Below, in pieces: positions 3,262 through 62,962 of a stretch of DNA of 64,000 bases. Both the position numbers and the translations under genes were made by a program. Location of the stretch: positions 286,866 through 350,865 of the forward strand of contig CP011209.1 of assembly GCA_001029635.1 (NCBI GenBank), in the 5' to 3' direction. The notes below the pieces were generated by a model, which saw only the letters and a program-made list of their open reading frames with translations, had not been told where the DNA came from and ran no database searches. Every line of letters starts with the position of its first letter. The stretch's first letter is position 1. This DNA comes from Candidatus Wolfebacteria bacterium GW2011_GWB1_47_1 (GTDB taxonomy: Bacteria; Patescibacteriota; Minisyncoccia; UBA6257; UBA9933).

Positions 3262-5181
3262 ATGCAAAAACAAATACTAAAATTATTATTCCTGTCGGTA
3301 TTTTTTTTAATGCCACTTTTTGTCAGTGCTGATGTCAACACGATTATTCCTGATCCTGCCAATGTGACTGCATGCGGCACGCTTAATCAAGCCGGCGCAA
3401 CTTATGTTTTGCAGAATGATGTCAGTTCCGAAGGGAGCTGCTTTGCGATTGTGGCCAGTGGAATAACTCTGGATCTGAACGGTCATACTGTGACTTATGA
3501 CAATGGAACGCCGATAAATATTATGAATGGAAGCTTTGAGGATGAATTGGCTGGGTCTTGGGACACGGTTAATGCGCAAAATTTCTTGAGGTCTGCTGGA
3601 ACATATGTCAGTCCGGTTTCTGTGTATGCTGGATCGTACGCGCTAAAAGCTATTACTCCGACTCCGGATCAAGTCGTTACTTCACTTGGCACGGTGACGC
3701 TGGCTCCAAATACGCGCTATAGTCTGTCGGGAATGGTCTACAATCGGGTCAGTGACAACATCTTAATGTCAATTGAATTTACCGACACCATGAAAGCTAT
3801 CCAGACTGGAATCACGGATAGGGGATTTCAATATATAACATATGAATTCGTAACTGGAGACAGTGAAGAGACATACAATATTGCATTAAAAGTGACGGGC
3901 GCCGCCGCGGTCGGCACGGGCGCGGTTTATTTTGATGATATCAAGATTCAGCGCAATCGATTGGCAGGAGTTATGGTTGGTCCTGTGGAATGGCGAGTTG
4001 CATGGCAATCGCGCGGGTTTGATATAAAGAATTATGGAGGCGCTAATAATACCACAGTTAAGGACGGCAGCATAATACAAGGCAGTGGAAAAAGTGACTG
4101 GTCACACGCCTTAGCGAGCGAAAGCAACAGCGTTTCCGGTCACACATTCAGCGGACTGAATATCACAACAAACGGCGCAAATTCCTCAGCTATTTTGATG
4201 GATAGTTTGCAGAATGGAGAAATAAAATACAATACTTTGGCTGCTAATATGCCTGCGATTAAGTCAAGAGATCAACTGGATGGAGCTGTTTTGAGAGCGG
4301 ATGGATATAATAGTTTTATACACGATAATGTCATCACAAATGGTGTTCAAGGTGGCATTTTGGCTGGCACTGCGGTCGGTCAACTTCCGCAAGAAATTTA
4401 TAACAACAACATCACTCTGCAAGGAAGATATACTAATGGTTTTGCGATTTCTGGGAATAAAAGCATTATAAGAAATAATACTATTAATTGCGGAAGCGGT
4501 AATAATTCTTGTCGAGGCATCTTTATCGGGTCTGAATCCGAAGTATTCGATAATATTGTAGAAGTTCAAGATATACCCCGCAATCAGGAATACAATGGTT
4601 GTCAGGGGTATGGAACATATGGCATTCAGATGGAGTCTGCTGAAAACAGCGATGTTTATGGAAATGTCGTTACGGCAAATTCGCCAAATGAATGCCCTGC
4701 CACTGCTTTTCGCGCCAACCCGCAAGACGGATCAATAGCTTCTATCAATAATTTGATTCATCACAATACTTTCATTGCCTATGCTTCGGGTAGTGCCAGG
4801 GCAACGTCCCTTAAGTTATCAGGTTGTGATAACTCGATGATTTCAATTTATAGCAACACCTTCAGAACAAACAGGCGATGGATTTATGCTGAATTTGATG
4901 GCATGGTCGATGGATTGCGCTTGGTTAACAACAGATGGGAGACTTTCGGATCAATTGATGAGCCTTTTTACCCGTTTGAAAATTTTGTGTGGGATGGAAG
5001 TTTCGTTAAGGATATGGTGTTTGAAAATAATGTTTATGGGGCGGGAGATAAAGAAAGATTTGAATCTGAATTTTTTAGAAAAACTACTGTTTGGCCGGAA
5101 ATAGAAACCCTTTCGAATTTCTCTGTCATATTTTCAGATGTGACAGCGCCAGCCTCGCCAACAGGTCTCGGCGTAATGTAA
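3262..5181 (+). CDS. Secreted tag-family protein with a CBM4/9-like module and parallel beta-helix repeats
   Basis: ORF track 3232..5181; the family signal peptide MQKQILKLLFL begins at 3262. NGSFEDELAGSWD is CBM-like. Repeated N.IT.N.I beta-helix motifs. Tail DVTAPASPTGLGVM*. Confidence 0.7.
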   Translation: MQKQILKLLFLSVFFLMPLFVSADVNTIIPDPANVTACGTLNQAGATYVLQNDVSSEGSCFAIVASGITLDLNGHTVTYDNGTPINIMNGSFEDELAGSWDTVNAQNFLRSAGTYVSPVSVYAGSYALKAITPTPDQVVTSLGTVTLAPNTRYSLSGMVYNRVSDNILMSIEFTDTMKAIQTGITDRGFQYITYEFVTGDSEETYNIALKVTGAAAVGTGAVYFDDIKIQRNRLAGVMVGPVEWRVAWQSRGFDIKNYGGANNTTVKDGSIIQGSGKSDWSHALASESNSVSGHTFSGLNITTNGANSSAILMDSLQNGEIKYNTLAANMPAIKSRDQLDGAVLRADGYNSFIHDNVITNGVQGGILAGTAVGQLPQEIYNNNITLQGRYTNGFAISGNKSIIRNNTINCGSGNNSCRGIFIGSESEVFDNIVEVQDIPRNQEYNGCQGYGTYGIQMESAENSDVYGNVVTANSPNECPATAFRANPQDGSIASINNLIHHNTFIAYASGSARATSLKLSGCDNSMISIYSNTFRTNRRWIYAEFDGMVDGLRLVNNRWETFGSIDEPFYPFENFVWDGSFVKDMVFENNVYGAGDKERFESEFFRKTTVWPEIETLSNFSVIFSDVTAPASPTGLGVM

Positions 5182-5212
5182 ATGAAGACGGAGCGGGCTG
5201 AGTGTGGAATGA

Positions 5213-5264
5213 CTCAAGTATAAAGTATTTAGTATTGTGTATAATGTATAAGTACAAAAGATGT
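5213..5264 (+). repeat. Conserved 3'UTR element (copy after gene 4), preceded by a vestigial second tag
   Basis: 5195-5212 gggctgagtgtggaatga (GLSVE*) is identical to the end of gene 3, out of frame and 13 nt after the real stop. Confidence 0.7.
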
Positions 5265-5331
5265 AAAATGCAATAAAAGCTTAAGAAGCTTAATACAAGA
5301 TACTAAATACAAGATACGAAATACTAACAAA

Positions 5332-6885
5332 ATGCAAAAACAAATTCTAAAATTTTTCTTCCTACTTGCAATATTTTTCTTGCTACCAAATTTTGCAAGT
5401 GCAGCTGATTTTCATATTGGGACAGGGCAACCATACGCAACTATTGGTTCCTTCGCGTGGTCTTCATTGGTCGCAGGAGATACAGTTTATATCCATGCCA
5501 GGGATAATCAGGAACCATATTACGAACATTTATATGTAAGTGCGGCATTGCAAGGAACCGAGCAGAATCCAATCAATATAATTGGTGTCAATGATGGATC
5601 AGGAAATCAGCCAATTCTCGATGGTAGAAATTCCACAACAGGTCCCAATTTTGATGCTTATGGTGATTCACAATACCATTCTCGGTTGGGTATTGTTTTT
5701 TTTGGTCCCAGTGAAACAGCAGGGTATGGTTCAGCGCCGCAATGGATAACGTTATCAAATATTAAAATTCAAAATTATAGAAATGTTTCTACTACTGATG
5801 AGATTGGGGTGACGACAAATGATGTTAGCGGCAGTTGTGTTTATTTGCAAGGAGGACAACAAATAACATTGGACAAATTAACGATCACGGGATGCGCCGA
5901 TGGTATTTTTGGCAAAGATAACGATTTTCCTGTTAGGTATATAACACTACAAAATTCATCTATTTATGATAATGGTGTTGTTGATGATTATCTTTATCAT
6001 AATATTTATACCGAAGTTAAATATCTGACAATGCAGTATAATCATTTTGGACCTACTGTTAATGGTTCTCCTGGAAACAACATTAAGGATAGAAGTGTGG
6101 GTTTCGTATTTCGTTATAATTGGGTTGACGGTGGAGCGCACCTTTTGGATATTGTGGAATGTCAAGATAACTGCGCAAATCATACTTCTGATCCTGCCTG
6201 GGATGACGTTTTTGTCTACGGTAACATCTTTTATGCTGGTCCTGGCTCTGCCTCTCAACTTTTTCATCTCGGAACAGGTGATACTGGAGCCTTAGCATCT
6301 TCTTGGCGCAAAAATTTATATTTTTATAATAATACTATTGATTATGAGAGAAATCAGAGCGACGTGTATTATATGAACATATTCCAACTTAGTGGAGATC
6401 AGCAAACTGTTTATTTTGACAATAATATATTTTTTGCGCAGCCGGAAACGGTTGGCCAGGCGCACTCTGACGTGTATTTGCAATACGATGGTTCAGCTGC
6501 TCCGTCTGCATATGGCAATATGATTATTGGAAAAAACTGGATTTCTCCTGATTGGAGTGTGACCAAGCCAGGTGTCACGCCAACTGGTATTATTTCTGGA
6601 GCGTTAAATATAATTTCACCGGCTGGAAATGATCCGTATTTTATTGATTCCGCTACGGGTGATTATCACCTCATGTCATCCTCTGGTGCAATTGGTGTTG
6701 CAAGTTCTTTACCAGCCTTGATTAGTTCAGGAAATGCGCTTGGGTATGATTTTACACCAGTAAAACAATACATAAACCATCAATTATTTGAAAATAGACT
6801 AAACATTTCAGATCTGGGCGCTTATCAATATGCTATTGATGATATTGTTGCCCCTGCCGCGCCAATGGGATTGGGTGTGATATAG
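5332..6885 (+). CDS. Secreted tag-family protein with a right-handed beta-helix (pectate-lyase-like fold)
   Basis: Signal peptide MQKQILKFFFLLAIFFLLPNFASA. NIKIQNY, TITGCADGIF and LQNSSIYDNG beta-helix repeats. Tail DDIVAPAAPMGLGVI*. Confidence 0.7.
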   Translation: MQKQILKFFFLLAIFFLLPNFASAADFHIGTGQPYATIGSFAWSSLVAGDTVYIHARDNQEPYYEHLYVSAALQGTEQNPINIIGVNDGSGNQPILDGRNSTTGPNFDAYGDSQYHSRLGIVFFGPSETAGYGSAPQWITLSNIKIQNYRNVSTTDEIGVTTNDVSGSCVYLQGGQQITLDKLTITGCADGIFGKDNDFPVRYITLQNSSIYDNGVVDDYLYHNIYTEVKYLTMQYNHFGPTVNGSPGNNIKDRSVGFVFRYNWVDGGAHLLDIVECQDNCANHTSDPAWDDVFVYGNIFYAGPGSASQLFHLGTGDTGALASSWRKNLYFYNNTIDYERNQSDVYYMNIFQLSGDQQTVYFDNNIFFAQPETVGQAHSDVYLQYDGSAAPSAYGNMIIGKNWISPDWSVTKPGVTPTGIISGALNIISPAGNDPYFIDSATGDYHLMSSSGAIGVASSLPALISSGNALGYDFTPVKQYINHQLFENRLNISDLGAYQYAIDDIVAPAAPMGLGVI

Positions 6886-6926
6886 GTAGGTGAGTATTTA
6901 AATAAGTATTTAGATTTATTATTGAG

Positions 6927-8648
6927 ATGCAAAATAAAAACTTAAAATTATATCTTTTCCTTGCGATATTCTTCTTGTTGCCTAATTTTGCGAATGCATT
7001 TGGTAATCCGGTGAGTTTTTATAATATCCAACCGTATACAAAAGGCACAAGTTCGAATTTCCCATTGTATCCAAAATCAACAGCACTGGAGCCGCAAAAG
7101 GGTCAATGTGTTTATGATGAAAATTATGGCAGTGAAGTTTGCAAAGTTGCTGATACCTCTGAATTTACAGTTGGGCAAATAGGGGATGCGGTCAGGCCTC
7201 CCTATAGTCGCTGGAGAATAGATAGTAGCGATGGAAGCAAATATTTCTTGCTTAAGGATGGTGAAACTCCCGCCGGCAGTGGAAAAGGTCAGACGGTTAT
7301 TTTTAATTCTGCGGATGATTCGATTCATAAGATAATAACTGAAATAAATAGTGGTGAGCCGCGCGAACTTCGTTGGGACTATTCAGGCACCAAGCAGAAT
7401 TCTATGTATTATGTTTCTGGATGCACCTTTTATGAATATGATATTGTTTCAGGTTTAAGTACTATTGTGCACAATTTTGGAAATGATTTTGCAAATTGTG
7501 GGAGAATTTTAAACGACGTGGAAGGCGATTCGTCCAGTGATTCCCGCTATTGGGCGTTTATGATTCAGAATCCTTATGATGGCAGTAAATATCCTATGCG
7601 TGCGATTGTTACTTATGACAAGCAAACCGATTCTATTTTAGGAACTTTGGATTATGCAGCCTATGCCGCAGCTGGGGGCACTTCAGAAAGTATGCCCACC
7701 CCTAATATGGTGGATATTTCACCGTTAGGAAATAAGGTTGTTTTGTTGAATGGGCGCTCATGGGGAGCGGTTGTGACAATTACTGGACCTTGGACAGATG
7801 AAGGTGTTGGAGTTTGGAGTTCTCCATATCAGTCCCTTACTAACGGAAATAATGCTTTTAATTGGGTTAAGGTCGATGGCGTTATATTGACTAGTAAAAC
7901 TCCTATAGATGGTGATAGACAATGGACGCGCGTAAGTGCTGAGAATAAATTGTATGTGAGATTGACTGGCGGAGAGAGTCCTGCTTCGCATAGCATCACA
8001 CTGGAATATGGGAAACGTCCTAATGATTTGAATTCAATTTTTGATGGTCCTCATGCTTTTGCTTTTGATTTTTCTAGTCCGGTGAAAGTTTGCAACGACG
8101 AAACTCACGGTGGATGGGCTTTTGATTTGAATGGTAATGAAGTGTATGTCTGTCAAGTCAATAATGGAAATTGGGCAAACGCTGATGGAGACACTATTGC
8201 TTATACTGATATTTTAACTGGGCAAACGAATACTATCATGTATCATAGCGACATTGGATGGGACGTAGGAGGATGGCACTTTGGTAGATTTTACAATAGT
8301 AACATACGTGGTTGGGTGTATATGACAAGTTATAGCAACAGTGATACAAGTTTAAGTTGGATGCGCAATCAGGCGTTTATGCTGGAGCTAAAACCATTCG
8401 CAGAACACCCCAGAGTTTGGCGCATTGCAGATACGCACAATAATTATCCTGGAGCTGCTGCTTATAAGCGTGAAGCATTTTCGCCGATAACACGTGATGG
8501 TTTGAAGATTTATTGGGGCTCGGATTGGCCTGGAGGTAATGGAACAGTGGATACATATTCAGTGCGTCTTCCTGATAATTGGTGGAATGTTCTTAATGGA
8601 AATGATGAAATTGCACCCGCTGCGCCAAGTGGTTTAGCAGTTCAATAA
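6927..8648 (+). CDS. Secreted tag-family protein with a large unknown core
   Basis: Signal peptide MQNKNLKLYLFLAIFFLLPNFANA. Tail DEIAPAAPSGLAVQ*. Confidence 0.65.
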   Translation: MQNKNLKLYLFLAIFFLLPNFANAFGNPVSFYNIQPYTKGTSSNFPLYPKSTALEPQKGQCVYDENYGSEVCKVADTSEFTVGQIGDAVRPPYSRWRIDSSDGSKYFLLKDGETPAGSGKGQTVIFNSADDSIHKIITEINSGEPRELRWDYSGTKQNSMYYVSGCTFYEYDIVSGLSTIVHNFGNDFANCGRILNDVEGDSSSDSRYWAFMIQNPYDGSKYPMRAIVTYDKQTDSILGTLDYAAYAAAGGTSESMPTPNMVDISPLGNKVVLLNGRSWGAVVTITGPWTDEGVGVWSSPYQSLTNGNNAFNWVKVDGVILTSKTPIDGDRQWTRVSAENKLYVRLTGGESPASHSITLEYGKRPNDLNSIFDGPHAFAFDFSSPVKVCNDETHGGWAFDLNGNEVYVCQVNNGNWANADGDTIAYTDILTGQTNTIMYHSDIGWDVGGWHFGRFYNSNIRGWVYMTSYSNSDTSLSWMRNQAFMLELKPFAEHPRVWRIADTHNNYPGAAAYKREAFSPITRDGLKIYWGSDWPGGNGTVDTYSVRLPDNWWNVLNGNDEIAPAAPSGLAVQ

Positions 8649-60669: not shown

Positions 60670-61113
60670 ATGGCAATGGAAGATATCGCAAAATTGCGTG
60701 AATTGACTGGGGCTGGCGTTGTAGAATGCAAAAAAGCATTCGATGAAGCTGAGGGTGATTTTGATCGGGCAAAGGATATTTTGTTCGAGCGCGGCATTGC
60801 CCGCGCTGAAAAGAAGAGTGATCGCGCGACTGGAGCGGGATTGTTGCAGACTTATACCCACAACGGACGTGTTTCCGTCATGGTTGAGTTGCGCTGCGAG
60901 ACCGACTTCGTCGCCCGTAATGAAAAATTCCAGGATATGGCGCATGGTATTGCGATGCACATCGCGGCTATGGCCCCGGAAACCGTCGAGGAGCTTTACG
61001 GACAGCAGTTCGTCAAGGATCCGTCCATGACCGTCGAGGAGCTCGTCAAGAGTATGATTGGCACCATCGGAGAGAACATTAAGGTGGAGAAGTTTGCTCG
61101 ATTCGAGATTTGA
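60670..61113 (+). CDS. tsf: Elongation factor Ts (short form)
   Basis: N-terminal UBA-like region LRELTGAGVVECKKAF plus the dimerisation core. Confidence 0.85.
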   Translation: MAMEDIAKLRELTGAGVVECKKAFDEAEGDFDRAKDILFERGIARAEKKSDRATGAGLLQTYTHNGRVSVMVELRCETDFVARNEKFQDMAHGIAMHIAAMAPETVEELYGQQFVKDPSMTVEELVKSMIGTIGENIKVEKFARFEI

Positions 61114-61871: not shown

Positions 61872-62492
61872 TTGTATATGAAAACTCTGAAAGACGAACA
61901 GCGAGAAATCGCGAGACTTTATATGGATGAGGGATATTCTATGATGCAAATCGCTCAGCAATTTAAATGTTCGGTATCCACTATTAGGTATTGGTTAGAC
62001 AAAAATAATGTTAAAAGGCGTTCTATAAACGAAGCAATAAACAATATATATAGTACGAAGTTTAATAAAGACCCTTTTTATTTAAATAAAAATCTATCTA
62101 AAAAAGATGAAGAGTTAAAAATAGCTGGCACCATGCTTTATTGGGGAGAAGGTGCAAAAACAGGGAATGCTGTTAAATTTGCTAATAGTGATCCGGAAAT
62201 GATCGTTTTATTTATAAATTTTCTTATTAAAGTTTGTGGAATTTCTCAAAATCGATTAAAGGTTTTAATGCATATATACCCTGACCATGATGAAGAGGCT
62301 CTAAAGGCTTTTTGGTCGCGAACTACACATATCCCGACGGATAGGTTTTATAAGTCCCATGTTCATATAGGGAAGATTGGGACATATAAGCGAAAATCGC
62401 CCTATGGGACGCTTGCGGTCAGTTATTCGGATAAAAAATTACTAAACATCCTTTTGTCTTGGATAGATCAATGTAAGCAAGATCTTCAATAA
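61872..62492 (+). CDS. AT-rich ORF: N-terminal HTH plus a LAGLIDADG-like motif; putative homing-endonuclease-like protein
   Basis: EQREIARLYMDEGYSMMQIAQQFKCSVSTIRYWL is a sigma-r4/HTH_23-type helix-turn-helix. GTMLYWGEGAKTG..VKFANSD resembles a single LAGLIDADG motif. Lower GC than its flanks. Confidence 0.4.
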   Translation: MYMKTLKDEQREIARLYMDEGYSMMQIAQQFKCSVSTIRYWLDKNNVKRRSINEAINNIYSTKFNKDPFYLNKNLSKKDEELKIAGTMLYWGEGAKTGNAVKFANSDPEMIVLFINFLIKVCGISQNRLKVLMHIYPDHDEEALKAFWSRTTHIPTDRFYKSHVHIGKIGTYKRKSPYGTLAVSYSDKKLLNILLSWIDQCKQDLQ

Positions 62493-62554
62493 TTGATACT
62501 TTGACAATTTTGATCAGGTATATTAAACTTGAAAAATAATTTAATGGCATTAGT

Positions 62555-62833
62555 GCCGATGTAGCTCAGTTGGTAGAGCAGCTCCATGGTGGGTCGCAAA
62601 CCCCCGCCCACTCCGATAGGAATATCGAAGTGAATCCCGAATAACGGTTAAAGTCCGCCTAAGGCGGATCAGACCGTGGCGCTCCGGCGCCCGAACGACT
62701 GACAAGGGGATCCTTACTCGTTGTAAAACGAACGGTTCAAGATACAGTCTAGCCCGTCTATAATTCGCCTTGTGCGATGAAATGAAGGTGTAAGCGAAGG
62801 AGCAGGTCGAAGGTTCGAATCCTTTCATCGGCT
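62555..62833 (+). tRNA. tRNA-Thr (anticodon GGT) interrupted by a ~206-nt group-I-like intron between positions 36 and 37
   Basis: 5' exon GCCGATGTAGCTCAGTTGGTAGAGCAGCTCCATGGT (62555-62590). 3' exon AAGGAGCAGGTCGAAGGTTCGAATCCTTTCATCGGCT (62797-62833). The two exons reconstitute perfect acceptor (GCCGATG / CATCGGC) and anticodon (GCTCC / GGAGC) stems. Confidence 0.7.
62591..62796 (+). ncRNA. Group-I-like intron in the tRNA-Thr anticodon loop
   Basis: The 5' exon ends in U and the insert ends in G (omegaG). Internal hairpins ccgcctaaggcgg and ggcgctccggcgcc. P3-like ggatc...gatcc. P7-like gactg...cagtc, with caagatacagtcta resembling the conserved S element AAGATATAGTC. Confidence 0.5.
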
Positions 62834-62845
62834 CATTTTTTGTTG

Positions 62846-62921
62846 GCCAGCATAGCTCAGTTGGTAGAGCAGTTGCTTTGTAAGCATCAGGTCGTGGGTT
62901 CGAATCCCTCTGCTGGCTCCA
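62846..62921 (+). tRNA. tRNA-Thr (anticodon TGT) with encoded CCA
   Basis: GCCAGCA-TA-GCTC-AGTTGGTA-GAGC-A-GTTGC-TTTGTAA-GCATC-AGGTC-GTGGG-TTCGAAT-CCCTC-TGCTGGC-T-CCA. Two U.U mismatches in the stems. Confidence 0.7.
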
Positions 62922-62962
62922 GGGTTGCAAAATATAAAGAACCGTGATATATAATAAAGACT

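Follow-up and report, generated by a model that had tools for sequence, protein, structure and literature searches.

The chromosome of Candidatus Wolfebacteria bacterium GW2011_GWB1_47_1 (assembly GCA_001029635.1, contig CP011209.1) was analyzed over a stretch of 64,000 nt (positions 286,866 to 350,865 of the forward strand), hereafter termed the window. The genes of interest in this window are rpsB, a short tsf, a gene for tRNA-Tyr, an open reading frame (ORF) of 204 codons, a split tRNA gene, a gene for tRNA-Thr(UGU) located 12 nt downstream of the split gene, rpmG and a gene for tRNA-Trp. The subject of this report is the split gene, which occupies positions 62555-62833 on the + strand; its parts and the ORF of 204 codons are likewise given on this strand. 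With a probability of roughly 0.9, it can be read as a tRNA-Thr(GGU) gene that is interrupted by a compact, 206-nt group I intron of a known, divergent class.

Exon boundaries and the register of the anticodon

The 5' exon (62555-62590; GCCGATGTAGCTCAGTTGGTAGAGCAGCTCCATGGT) comprises the acceptor strand GCCGATG, the D arm and the anticodon stem strand GCTCC, followed by A-T-G-G-T, which provides loop bases 32 to 36 (A U G G U in the tRNA). The 3' exon (62797-62833; AAGGAGCAGGTCGAAGGTTCGAATCCTTTCATCGGCT) starts with A37 and A38 and continues with GGAGC, the variable loop AGGTC, the T arm, CATCGGC and a discriminator T (U in the tRNA), while CCA is not encoded. Between U36 and A37 lies the insert of 206 nt (62591-62796; GGGTCGCAAA...GGTGTAAGCG), which is of the group I type. 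The last base of the 5' exon is U and the last base of the insert is G. ARAGORN without intron search missed the split gene and called only tRNA-Tyr, tRNA-Thr(UGU) and tRNA-Trp in this stretch. With intron search (ARAGORN -i), a split tRNA with a 206-nt insert was reported at 62555-62834 and named tRNA-Arg(GCG), interrupted at 34/35. The coordinates, the insert length and the intact cloverleaf given in the original prediction, which was made from the sequence letters without database searches, are in agreement with the exon sequences and with this call.

The name returned by ARAGORN -i reflects short repeats at the two junctions (..AUG GU|GGG.. and ..AAG CG|AA..), which allow a 7-nt anticodon loop to be drawn in three registers: tRNA-Thr(GGU) with the insert at 36/37, tRNA-Arg(GCG) with the insert at 34/35, or tRNA-Pro(GGG) with the insert at 35/36. 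Only the Thr(GGU) register combines a 5' exon that ends in U with an insert that ends in G. ARAGORN applied to the joined exons returned tRNA-Thr(ggt), a cloverleaf with a GGU anticodon and A37; the in silico spliced junction reads ...CUCCAUGGU-AAGGAG..., and the joined exons read ...GCUCCAUGGUAAGGAGC... across it. The body of the tRNA likewise resembles that of threonine tRNAs. G1-C72, C2-G71 and U73 are the same as in the neighboring tRNA-Thr(UGU), and 61 of 73 positions are identical to an intron-less tRNA-Thr(GGU) on a Patescibacteria contig (L126), with which the anticodon arm across the exon junction is identical. The 36/37 boundaries are also fixed from the intron side, because the helices P1 and P9.0 of the insert, described below, mark the same two sites; the Arg and Pro registers disregard the GGU/GCC pairing of P1, in which the U.G is invariant, as well as P9.0, which covaries and lies directly before G62796. 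The same ARAGORN miscall is documented for published introns (Nakagawa et al., 2026; PMC13011429). The Arg(GCG) register was rejected on the boundary rules, P1 and P9.0, and a tRNA-Arg or tRNA-Pro gene is exceedingly improbable. The host tRNA, its anticodon, the insertion site and the rule of a U before and a G at the end of the insert had all been predicted and hold, with U36 and G62796 being invariant in the 31 sequences compared below.

Structure and conservation of the insert

When each GTDB species, represented by a single genome, was scanned for 5' halves of tRNA-Thr in which base 37 is not A, at least 120 loci were obtained. Among the matches listed, 30 other species carry an insert of 176-230 nt at the same site of tRNA-Thr(GGU), and all those whose lineage is named in the record title are Patescibacteria (Saccharibacteria, Moranbacteria, Kaiserbacteria, Wolfebacteria, Vogelbacteria, Parcubacteria, and others). 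The window sequence and its 30 homologues share invariant core blocks in the order ..GCCC.., ..CCCGAAUAACGGUUAA.., ..AGACCGU.., ..CGAACGACUGACAAGGG.., ..AGAUACAGUCUA.., ..GGUGUAAGCG; the stretches between these blocks vary freely in sequence and form a hairpin every time. A full-intron MAFFT alignment (A1) was unreliable in the variable hairpins and was replaced by a second alignment (A2), for which each sequence was divided at the invariant blocks and every variable segment was trimmed to a set number of bases at either end, irrespective of complementarity. This gave 164 gap-free columns, onto which the group I helices were written afterwards. Standard pairs fill 94.4% of the 1457 cells of the 47 proposed pairs and fall to 31-46% when the partners are slid by 1-3 columns. 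Two-sided changes occur at 28 of the 47 pairs, and none of 500 shuffles of the alignment matched it in any of five measures. The helices are 93-100% paired with two-sided changes, except for P2 (72%), the length of which varies relative to the fixed trimming rule and thereby lowers its value. The three anticodon-stem pairs across the intron are 100% paired; as they were demanded by the exon search, they do not constitute independent evidence.

The helices obtained in this way correspond to the group I architecture with its P3-P8 and P4-P6 domains, a P3/P7 pseudoknot, a guanosine-site motif and P9.0. P1 (62588-62608) is formed by the exon bases GGU (62588-62590) and an internal guide GCC (62606-62608) with a U36.G wobble at the splice site; the U36.G16 pair and both G-C pairs are invariant in the 31 sequences, and an extension of P1 (GGG 62591-62593 with CCC 62602-62604) covaries. 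It is followed by the P2 hairpin (62610-62631), which is capped by a GGAA loop of the GNRA type and changes on both sides at four of five counted pairs. The P3 strands CCC (62636-62638) and GGG (62706-62708) are 98.9% paired, exhibit CG, UA and UG types at two of the three pairs and form the pseudoknot with P7. Within the P4-P5 region (62644-62677), the six base pairs of P4 (62644-62649 with 62672-62677) are 100% paired and are connected by J4/5 (AAAG) and J5/4 to the P5 hairpin (62654-62668), in which 3/3 pairs covary. P6 (62678-62691; GGCGC-UCCG-GCGCC) shows exchanges between G-C, A-U and C-G.

The 5' strand of P7 (62695-62701) consists of A62695, the bulged C62696 and GACUG (62697-62701), and its partner is located at 62745-62750 (CAGUC U). 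GACUG and CAGUC are invariant, while the outer A-U pair across the bulged C is replaced by G-C in one species (L089); G62697-C62749 is the presumed guanosine-binding pair. The P8 hairpin (62709-62738) has a distal stem UCGUU-GUAA-AACGA and covaries at 4/4 counted pairs; J8/7 (AAGAUA) and the P7 3' strand (CAGUCU) then form the classical "S" element (62739-62750), and no P7.1 or P7.2 was seen between P7 and the 3' strand of P3 in the window intron. The remaining part (62752-62795) contains P9.0, in which GC (62752-62753) pairs with GC (62794-62795), enclosing P9 (62754-62788). The two P9.0 pairs are GC in 21 and AU in 10 sequences, and CG in 22, UA in 7 and UG in one, respectively, and P9, like P5, P6 and P8, covaries heavily. 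The insert ends with the terminal guanosine (omega-G; 62796, column G156 of A2). The P3- and P7-like pairings that had been noted from the single sequence are thus borne out by covariation.

A position in the anticodon loop is also where protein-spliced introns reside, and Rfam returned no family of any kind over the insert (62400-62950, E<=10). These two observations would fit an element of a different nature, either an archaeal-type bulge-helix-bulge intron removed by a protein endonuclease or a small transposable element. However, the insert contains a full covarying set of helices from P1 to P9, and the genome is bacterial. In addition to rpsB, tsf and rpmG in the window, the exact L33 protein was found on contigs of Patescibacteria assemblies (e.g., GCA_001003425.1) and on one groundwater metagenome contig; three fetched loci with this protein proved to have an intron locus that is 100% identical, which makes them uninformative for comparison but places the same locus in a Patescibacteria assembly. 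Judged by these genes, the host chromosome is that of a bacterium of the Candidate Phyla Radiation (CPR) and not of an archaeon. An origin other than group I is therefore extremely unlikely.

The insert was also compared with the group I intron model RF00028 of Rfam, the consensus of which was taken from the printed alignment of a tRNA-Phe(GAA) intron (L033, 94.5 bits). The resemblance to a conserved S element, on which the original prediction had drawn, is confirmed by the match of CAAGAUACAGUCUA to the consensus gAAGAUAUAGUCu. Further correspondences exist in J3/4-P4 (GAAUAACGGUUAAAG in the window, gAAUUGCGGgAAAc in the consensus; model stretch in the alignment gAAUUGCGGgAAA), in the P4' strand, which lines up with AAuCCGCAGC of the model, in the R element (AACGACUGA compared with AaAGACUA) and in the S element (AAGAUACAGUCU compared with AAGAUAUAGUCu). 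Within the R and S elements, the terminal pair of P7 shows a compensatory exchange (A-U to G-C), and the P7 core GACU/AGUC is identical in both. A covariance model built from the class itself (R1) recognized all class members at 100-130 bits, and at E<=1 matched none of the canonical introns in tRNA-Phe, in the tRNA-Thr(UGU) of Clostridia or in L023. By score, R1 thus provides no link between the class and canonical group I introns, and the class represents a sequence family of its own that has the architecture of group I.

Published relatives and evidence for splicing

Divergent group I introns in tRNA-Thr have been described between 2020 and 2026, and the feature in the window is a known kind of element; the expectation that a tRNA-Thr host would be new was mistaken, although the structural interpretation as a group I intron was right. 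A bacterial tRNA-intron model was introduced together with the tFind software, by which the tRNA types known to be interrupted increased from 4 to 21 (Williams, 2020, bioRxiv 10.1101/2020.01.27.920355). In a survey of 95 complete Patescibacteria genomes, three introns were identified at 36/37 of tRNA-Thr(GGU) (assemblies GCA_001029635.1, GCA_016700375.1 and GCA_030583745.1) and listed as "not detected" with RF00028 (Table 1 in Nakagawa et al., 2026). ARAGORN names two of these three tRNAs Arg(GCG) with an intron at 34/35, while the gpI_bact_tRNA model of tFind calls them correctly. The authors refer to "divergent group I introns," a term that they attribute to Castelle et al. (2018), with a length and a predicted structure comparable to canonical ones, and in their tree the Thr introns of Patescibacteria form a long branch inside IA. 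Both the RF00028 miss and the Arg(GCG) 34/35 call were reproduced exactly at the window locus. The published introns and the window intron agree in phylum, host tRNA, anticodon, site, boundary rule and tool behavior, and no material difference was found; GCA_001003425.1, a draft assembly with the identical locus, was not one of the 95 complete genomes of that survey.

Reinhold-Hurek and Shub reportedly described, in 1992, group I introns at 36/37 of an Azoarcus tRNA-Ile(CAU) and an Agrobacterium tRNA-Arg(CCU) (cited in Nakagawa et al., 2026). Like the window intron, these are located directly 3' of the third anticodon base, measure about 200 nt, lack an ORF, have a U.G in a short P1 and a terminal G, and fold into P2-P9 with GNRA loops. 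They differ from the window class in their core sequence and in that the latter has a P3 of 3 bp. The Azoarcus and Agrobacterium introns are assigned to subgroup IC3 (Williams, 2020, bioRxiv 10.1101/2020.01.27.920355).

Several points weigh against the reading of the insert as a group I intron of this divergent class. RF00028 gave no match, either over the whole window at the gathering score or, with E<=10, over 62400-62950. P3 comprises no more than 3 bp, compared with 7-8 bp in the model, which is atypical for group I introns. No convincing P10 was found when a complement to AAGGAG was sought by eye next to the guide. The published splicing assays were carried out with Asn and Asp introns at 35/36 and not with the Thr class (Nakagawa et al., 2026). 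Finally, it is from host, site, phylum and tool behavior that we infer the three published Thr introns to be in the same sequence family as the window intron. As to the first two points, a P3 of 3 bp instead of 7-8 bp is a sufficient reason for the silence of RF00028, which extends to the other class members tested and to the phage copies described below. The original prediction had proposed that a missing RF00028 match would refute it; the search was run and returned none, yet this result is a false negative of a model that misses this class. A refutation on this ground was rejected in view of homologues with covarying structure and the same miss in the literature. The RF00028 threshold is a criterion of detection and not of mechanism. 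With regard to P10, its place may be taken by the pairing of both exons in the anticodon stem, as has been reported for the tRNA-Leu intron of Anabaena (Zaug et al., 1993, cited in Nakagawa et al., 2026).

Following established group I chemistry, and starting from the observed boundaries, helices, core and intact exons, the precursor would fold such that G34, G35 and U36 of the exon pair with the guide GCC (P1), so that cleavage would occur next to the U.G wobble. A free guanosine, held by the G-C pair in P7, would attack after U36, P9.0 would bring the terminal G206 into the same P7 site, and the freed 3'-OH of U36 would then attack after G206 and join the exons. The expected product is a normal tRNA-Thr(GGU) of 73 nt with the loop A-U-G-G-U-A-A.

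Whether such a product is under selection was approached by a census that was ascertained via the intron and not via the exons. Metagenome contigs were scanned for the core alone (CGAACGACTGACAA, 20-50 bases, ATACAGTC), which returned at least 120 loci. The counts refer to the matches listed: 121 in total, 20 of which were too near a contig end to be scored. Among the 101 scorable copies, 95 are located at 36/37 of tRNA-Thr(GGU), with 20-21 of 21 pairs formed in the four stems and 80 distinct exon pairs, and the other six are of the phage type. The recurrence in 30 other species and on these 95 contigs shows that the insert is not due to chance. The missing RF00028 match and the second threonine tRNA (UGU) 12 nt downstream, which might cover the ACN codons, could be taken to indicate an insertion-inactivated pseudogene with a dead or non-splicing relic. 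Neutral decay, however, would destroy both exons and intron, whereas the exons are intact in the window and in 95/95 of the intron-ascertained tRNA copies, and the core is invariant with helices kept by compensatory changes over many Patescibacteria lineages. That both exons are perfect in so many lineages therefore argues for selection on the spliced product and makes an inactivated gene very unlikely. This intactness provides strong indirect evidence that the cell removes the intron and uses the tRNA.

The adjoining gene, phage copies and other split tRNAs

The free-standing ORF of 204 codons (61878-62492) stops 62 nt short of the split tRNA gene on its upstream side and encodes an N-terminal helix-turn-helix (HTH) and a putative LAGLIDADG-like domain, of which Pfam recognized the HTH only. 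Its family comprises 134 matches, with every lineage-bearing source name belonging to CPR/Patescibacteria, an invariant LYWGEG motif and no functional annotation beyond generic DNA-binding labels. A profile search of the fetched loci placed the gene immediately before the split tRNA-Thr in 14 of the 31 class loci, where it often overlaps the first bases of the tRNA gene. It is located downstream of the split tRNA-Thr in two loci and beside a split tRNA-Phe in three, and two copies are frameshifted. Four family members picked from the protein database regardless of introns abut an intron-less tRNA-Thr(UGU) in two cases and tRNA-Tyr in two, and in one of the latter a split tRNA-Thr(GGU) follows immediately. 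The gene thus resembles a homing-endonuclease gene that stands on its own and is directed at the 5' edge of the tRNA genes in this cluster. Since its family also occurs beside intron-less tRNAs, the gene is no partner specific to the intron; a contribution to intron movement or retention is conceivable, though unsupported.

Maturases of the LAGLIDADG type are known from other group I introns. The insert could thus have a group I fold that needs a protein helper, for instance the LAGLIDADG-like protein acting as a maturase, a view favored by the unusually short P3, the divergence of the core from RF00028 and the position of the gene directly upstream in the 14 loci mentioned. About half of the intron loci, however, lack such a gene in the stretch that was fetched, two copies of it are frameshifted, and the same family abuts the intron-less tRNA-Thr(UGU) and tRNA-Tyr genes. 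Dependence on such a helper is consequently considered unlikely, though less so than inactivation of the gene. As a separate observation on the neighborhood, elongation factor Ts (60670-61113) has only 147 residues, about half the usual bacterial length, which fits a reduced CPR proteome.

The core pattern of the tRNA-Thr intron was also found on 42 IMG/VR contigs (L255-L296), and in 0 of the 42 is it located inside a tRNA gene. R1 aligns to the IMG/VR copies over its full length with 30-89 bits. The only phage contig that was resolved, L278, which is the same contig as L142, carries three copies within 1.5 kb (6280-6469, 6746-6935 and 7569-7752), and the same three copies are present in L294. 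Splice sites and the capsid start were set from an uninterrupted homologue. Each of the three copies follows a U, ends with G and is inserted between codons (phase 0), and P1 and P9.0 can be drawn for each. Their removal in silico converts a stub of 41 codons into an ORF of 442 residues, the first 414 of which align without gaps and with 94% identity to the uninterrupted homologue, whose family includes members with the SU10 major-capsid domain PF17236. A tblastn search of INPHARED phages with the L278 capsid protein gave no match. The 3' sites in L278 are fixed by restoration of the ORF. The restored ORF provides independent evidence that members of this RNA class are precise, mobile introns with group I boundaries. 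Judged from these sequences, the class is wider than its tRNA-Thr niche.

Phage genes with several group I introns exist, for example orf142 of Staphylococcus phage Twort. The phage relatives of the window intron resemble this arrangement in that three copies reside in one capsid gene, whereas the window copy is chromosomal and located in a tRNA gene. A limited, narrow literature search found no paper on the phage copies or on the gene adjoining the tRNA. Taken together, these findings tentatively suggest that a subclass invisible to RF00028, with a minimal P3 of 3 bp and the core CGAACGACUGACAAGGG...AUACAGUCU, also moves through phage protein genes, as exemplified by three phase-0 copies in an SU10-type capsid gene with 94%-identical intron-less alleles; this would point to exchange between phages and CPR bacteria, with the LAGLIDADG-like gene possibly helping to mobilize or retain the intron. 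We regard this combined scenario as conceivable, albeit with less than even odds. If the phage link is true, it would provide a concrete route for intron traffic into reduced CPR genomes and, for work on ribozymes, a collection of small group I variants from nature in which P3 is minimal.

Two further observations were made on the viral contigs. In L278, the spliced capsid ORF departs from most homologues after ..GNSDAL (from about 7990 onward, residue 414) and ends in a different tail of 28 residues, which it has in common with one database protein (P0121); the tail could reflect a fourth insertion, different in type from the other three, or a genuine variant of the C-terminus. In viral contig L268, a copy of the divergent class (4423-4607) is followed about 500 nt downstream by a canonical group I intron (5099-5361), which RF00028 scores at 78.5 bits.

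tRNAscan-type tools, ARAGORN with default settings and Rfam miss or misname this tRNA-Thr(GGU), and the completeness and codon-reading capacity of CPR genomes are thereby underestimated, as has already been pointed out (Nakagawa et al., 2026). The present analysis adds a covariation-backed structure from 31 species that includes P9.0 and the P7 bulge, splice sites fixed independently of the exons, an intron-ascertained census in which the cellular (non-phage) copies listed reside almost exclusively in intact tRNA-Thr(GGU), and the finding of the same ribozyme class in phage genes.

The searches also revealed split tRNAs with other inserts. In uncultured gut Clostridia and Bacilli (including Clostridium sp. 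CAG:492), position 36/37 of tRNA-Thr(UGU) is interrupted by another insert, GGGAUAG...UAGUAGUAUG, of 218-243 nt in L006, L008, L009, L027-L029, L031, L039, L051, L052, L060, L063, L066, L072, L082 and L115, and of 659 nt in L057. Its boundaries are of the U|...G type and its P1 contains a U.G (UGU|GGGAUAG with CUAUCUUGCA); in the three loci searched with RF00028, the insert was missed at the gathering score. Outside of Patescibacteria, tRNA-Thr(GGU) genes cut at 36/37 by unrelated inserts were found in a metagenome-assembled genome (MAG) of Bacillaceae (L023) and in MAGs of Solirubrobacteraceae (L014, L054). The 218-nt insert of L023 looks like the Azoarcus type (..GAAGGUGUAGAGGCCAGACGG..), yet has no RF00028 match, and for L014 and L054 no 3' exon was present within 1.5 kb. 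L018 contains two identical 5' halves of a split tRNA-Thr(GGU) with the same intron start (5194-5222 and 5453-5481), 259 nt apart; the second half-gene is cut by the contig end, indicating either a tandem duplication or an assembly artefact. The search pattern for tRNA-Thr also caught tRNA-Phe(GAA) genes split at 33/34 (..GGACU | GGUUUUCGGUCC..) in L005, L024, L033, L034, L075, L083, L084 and L095. Since the intron of L033 scored 94.5 bits with RF00028 and the similar one of L005 nothing at the gathering score, the performance of this model on bacterial tRNA introns is uneven.
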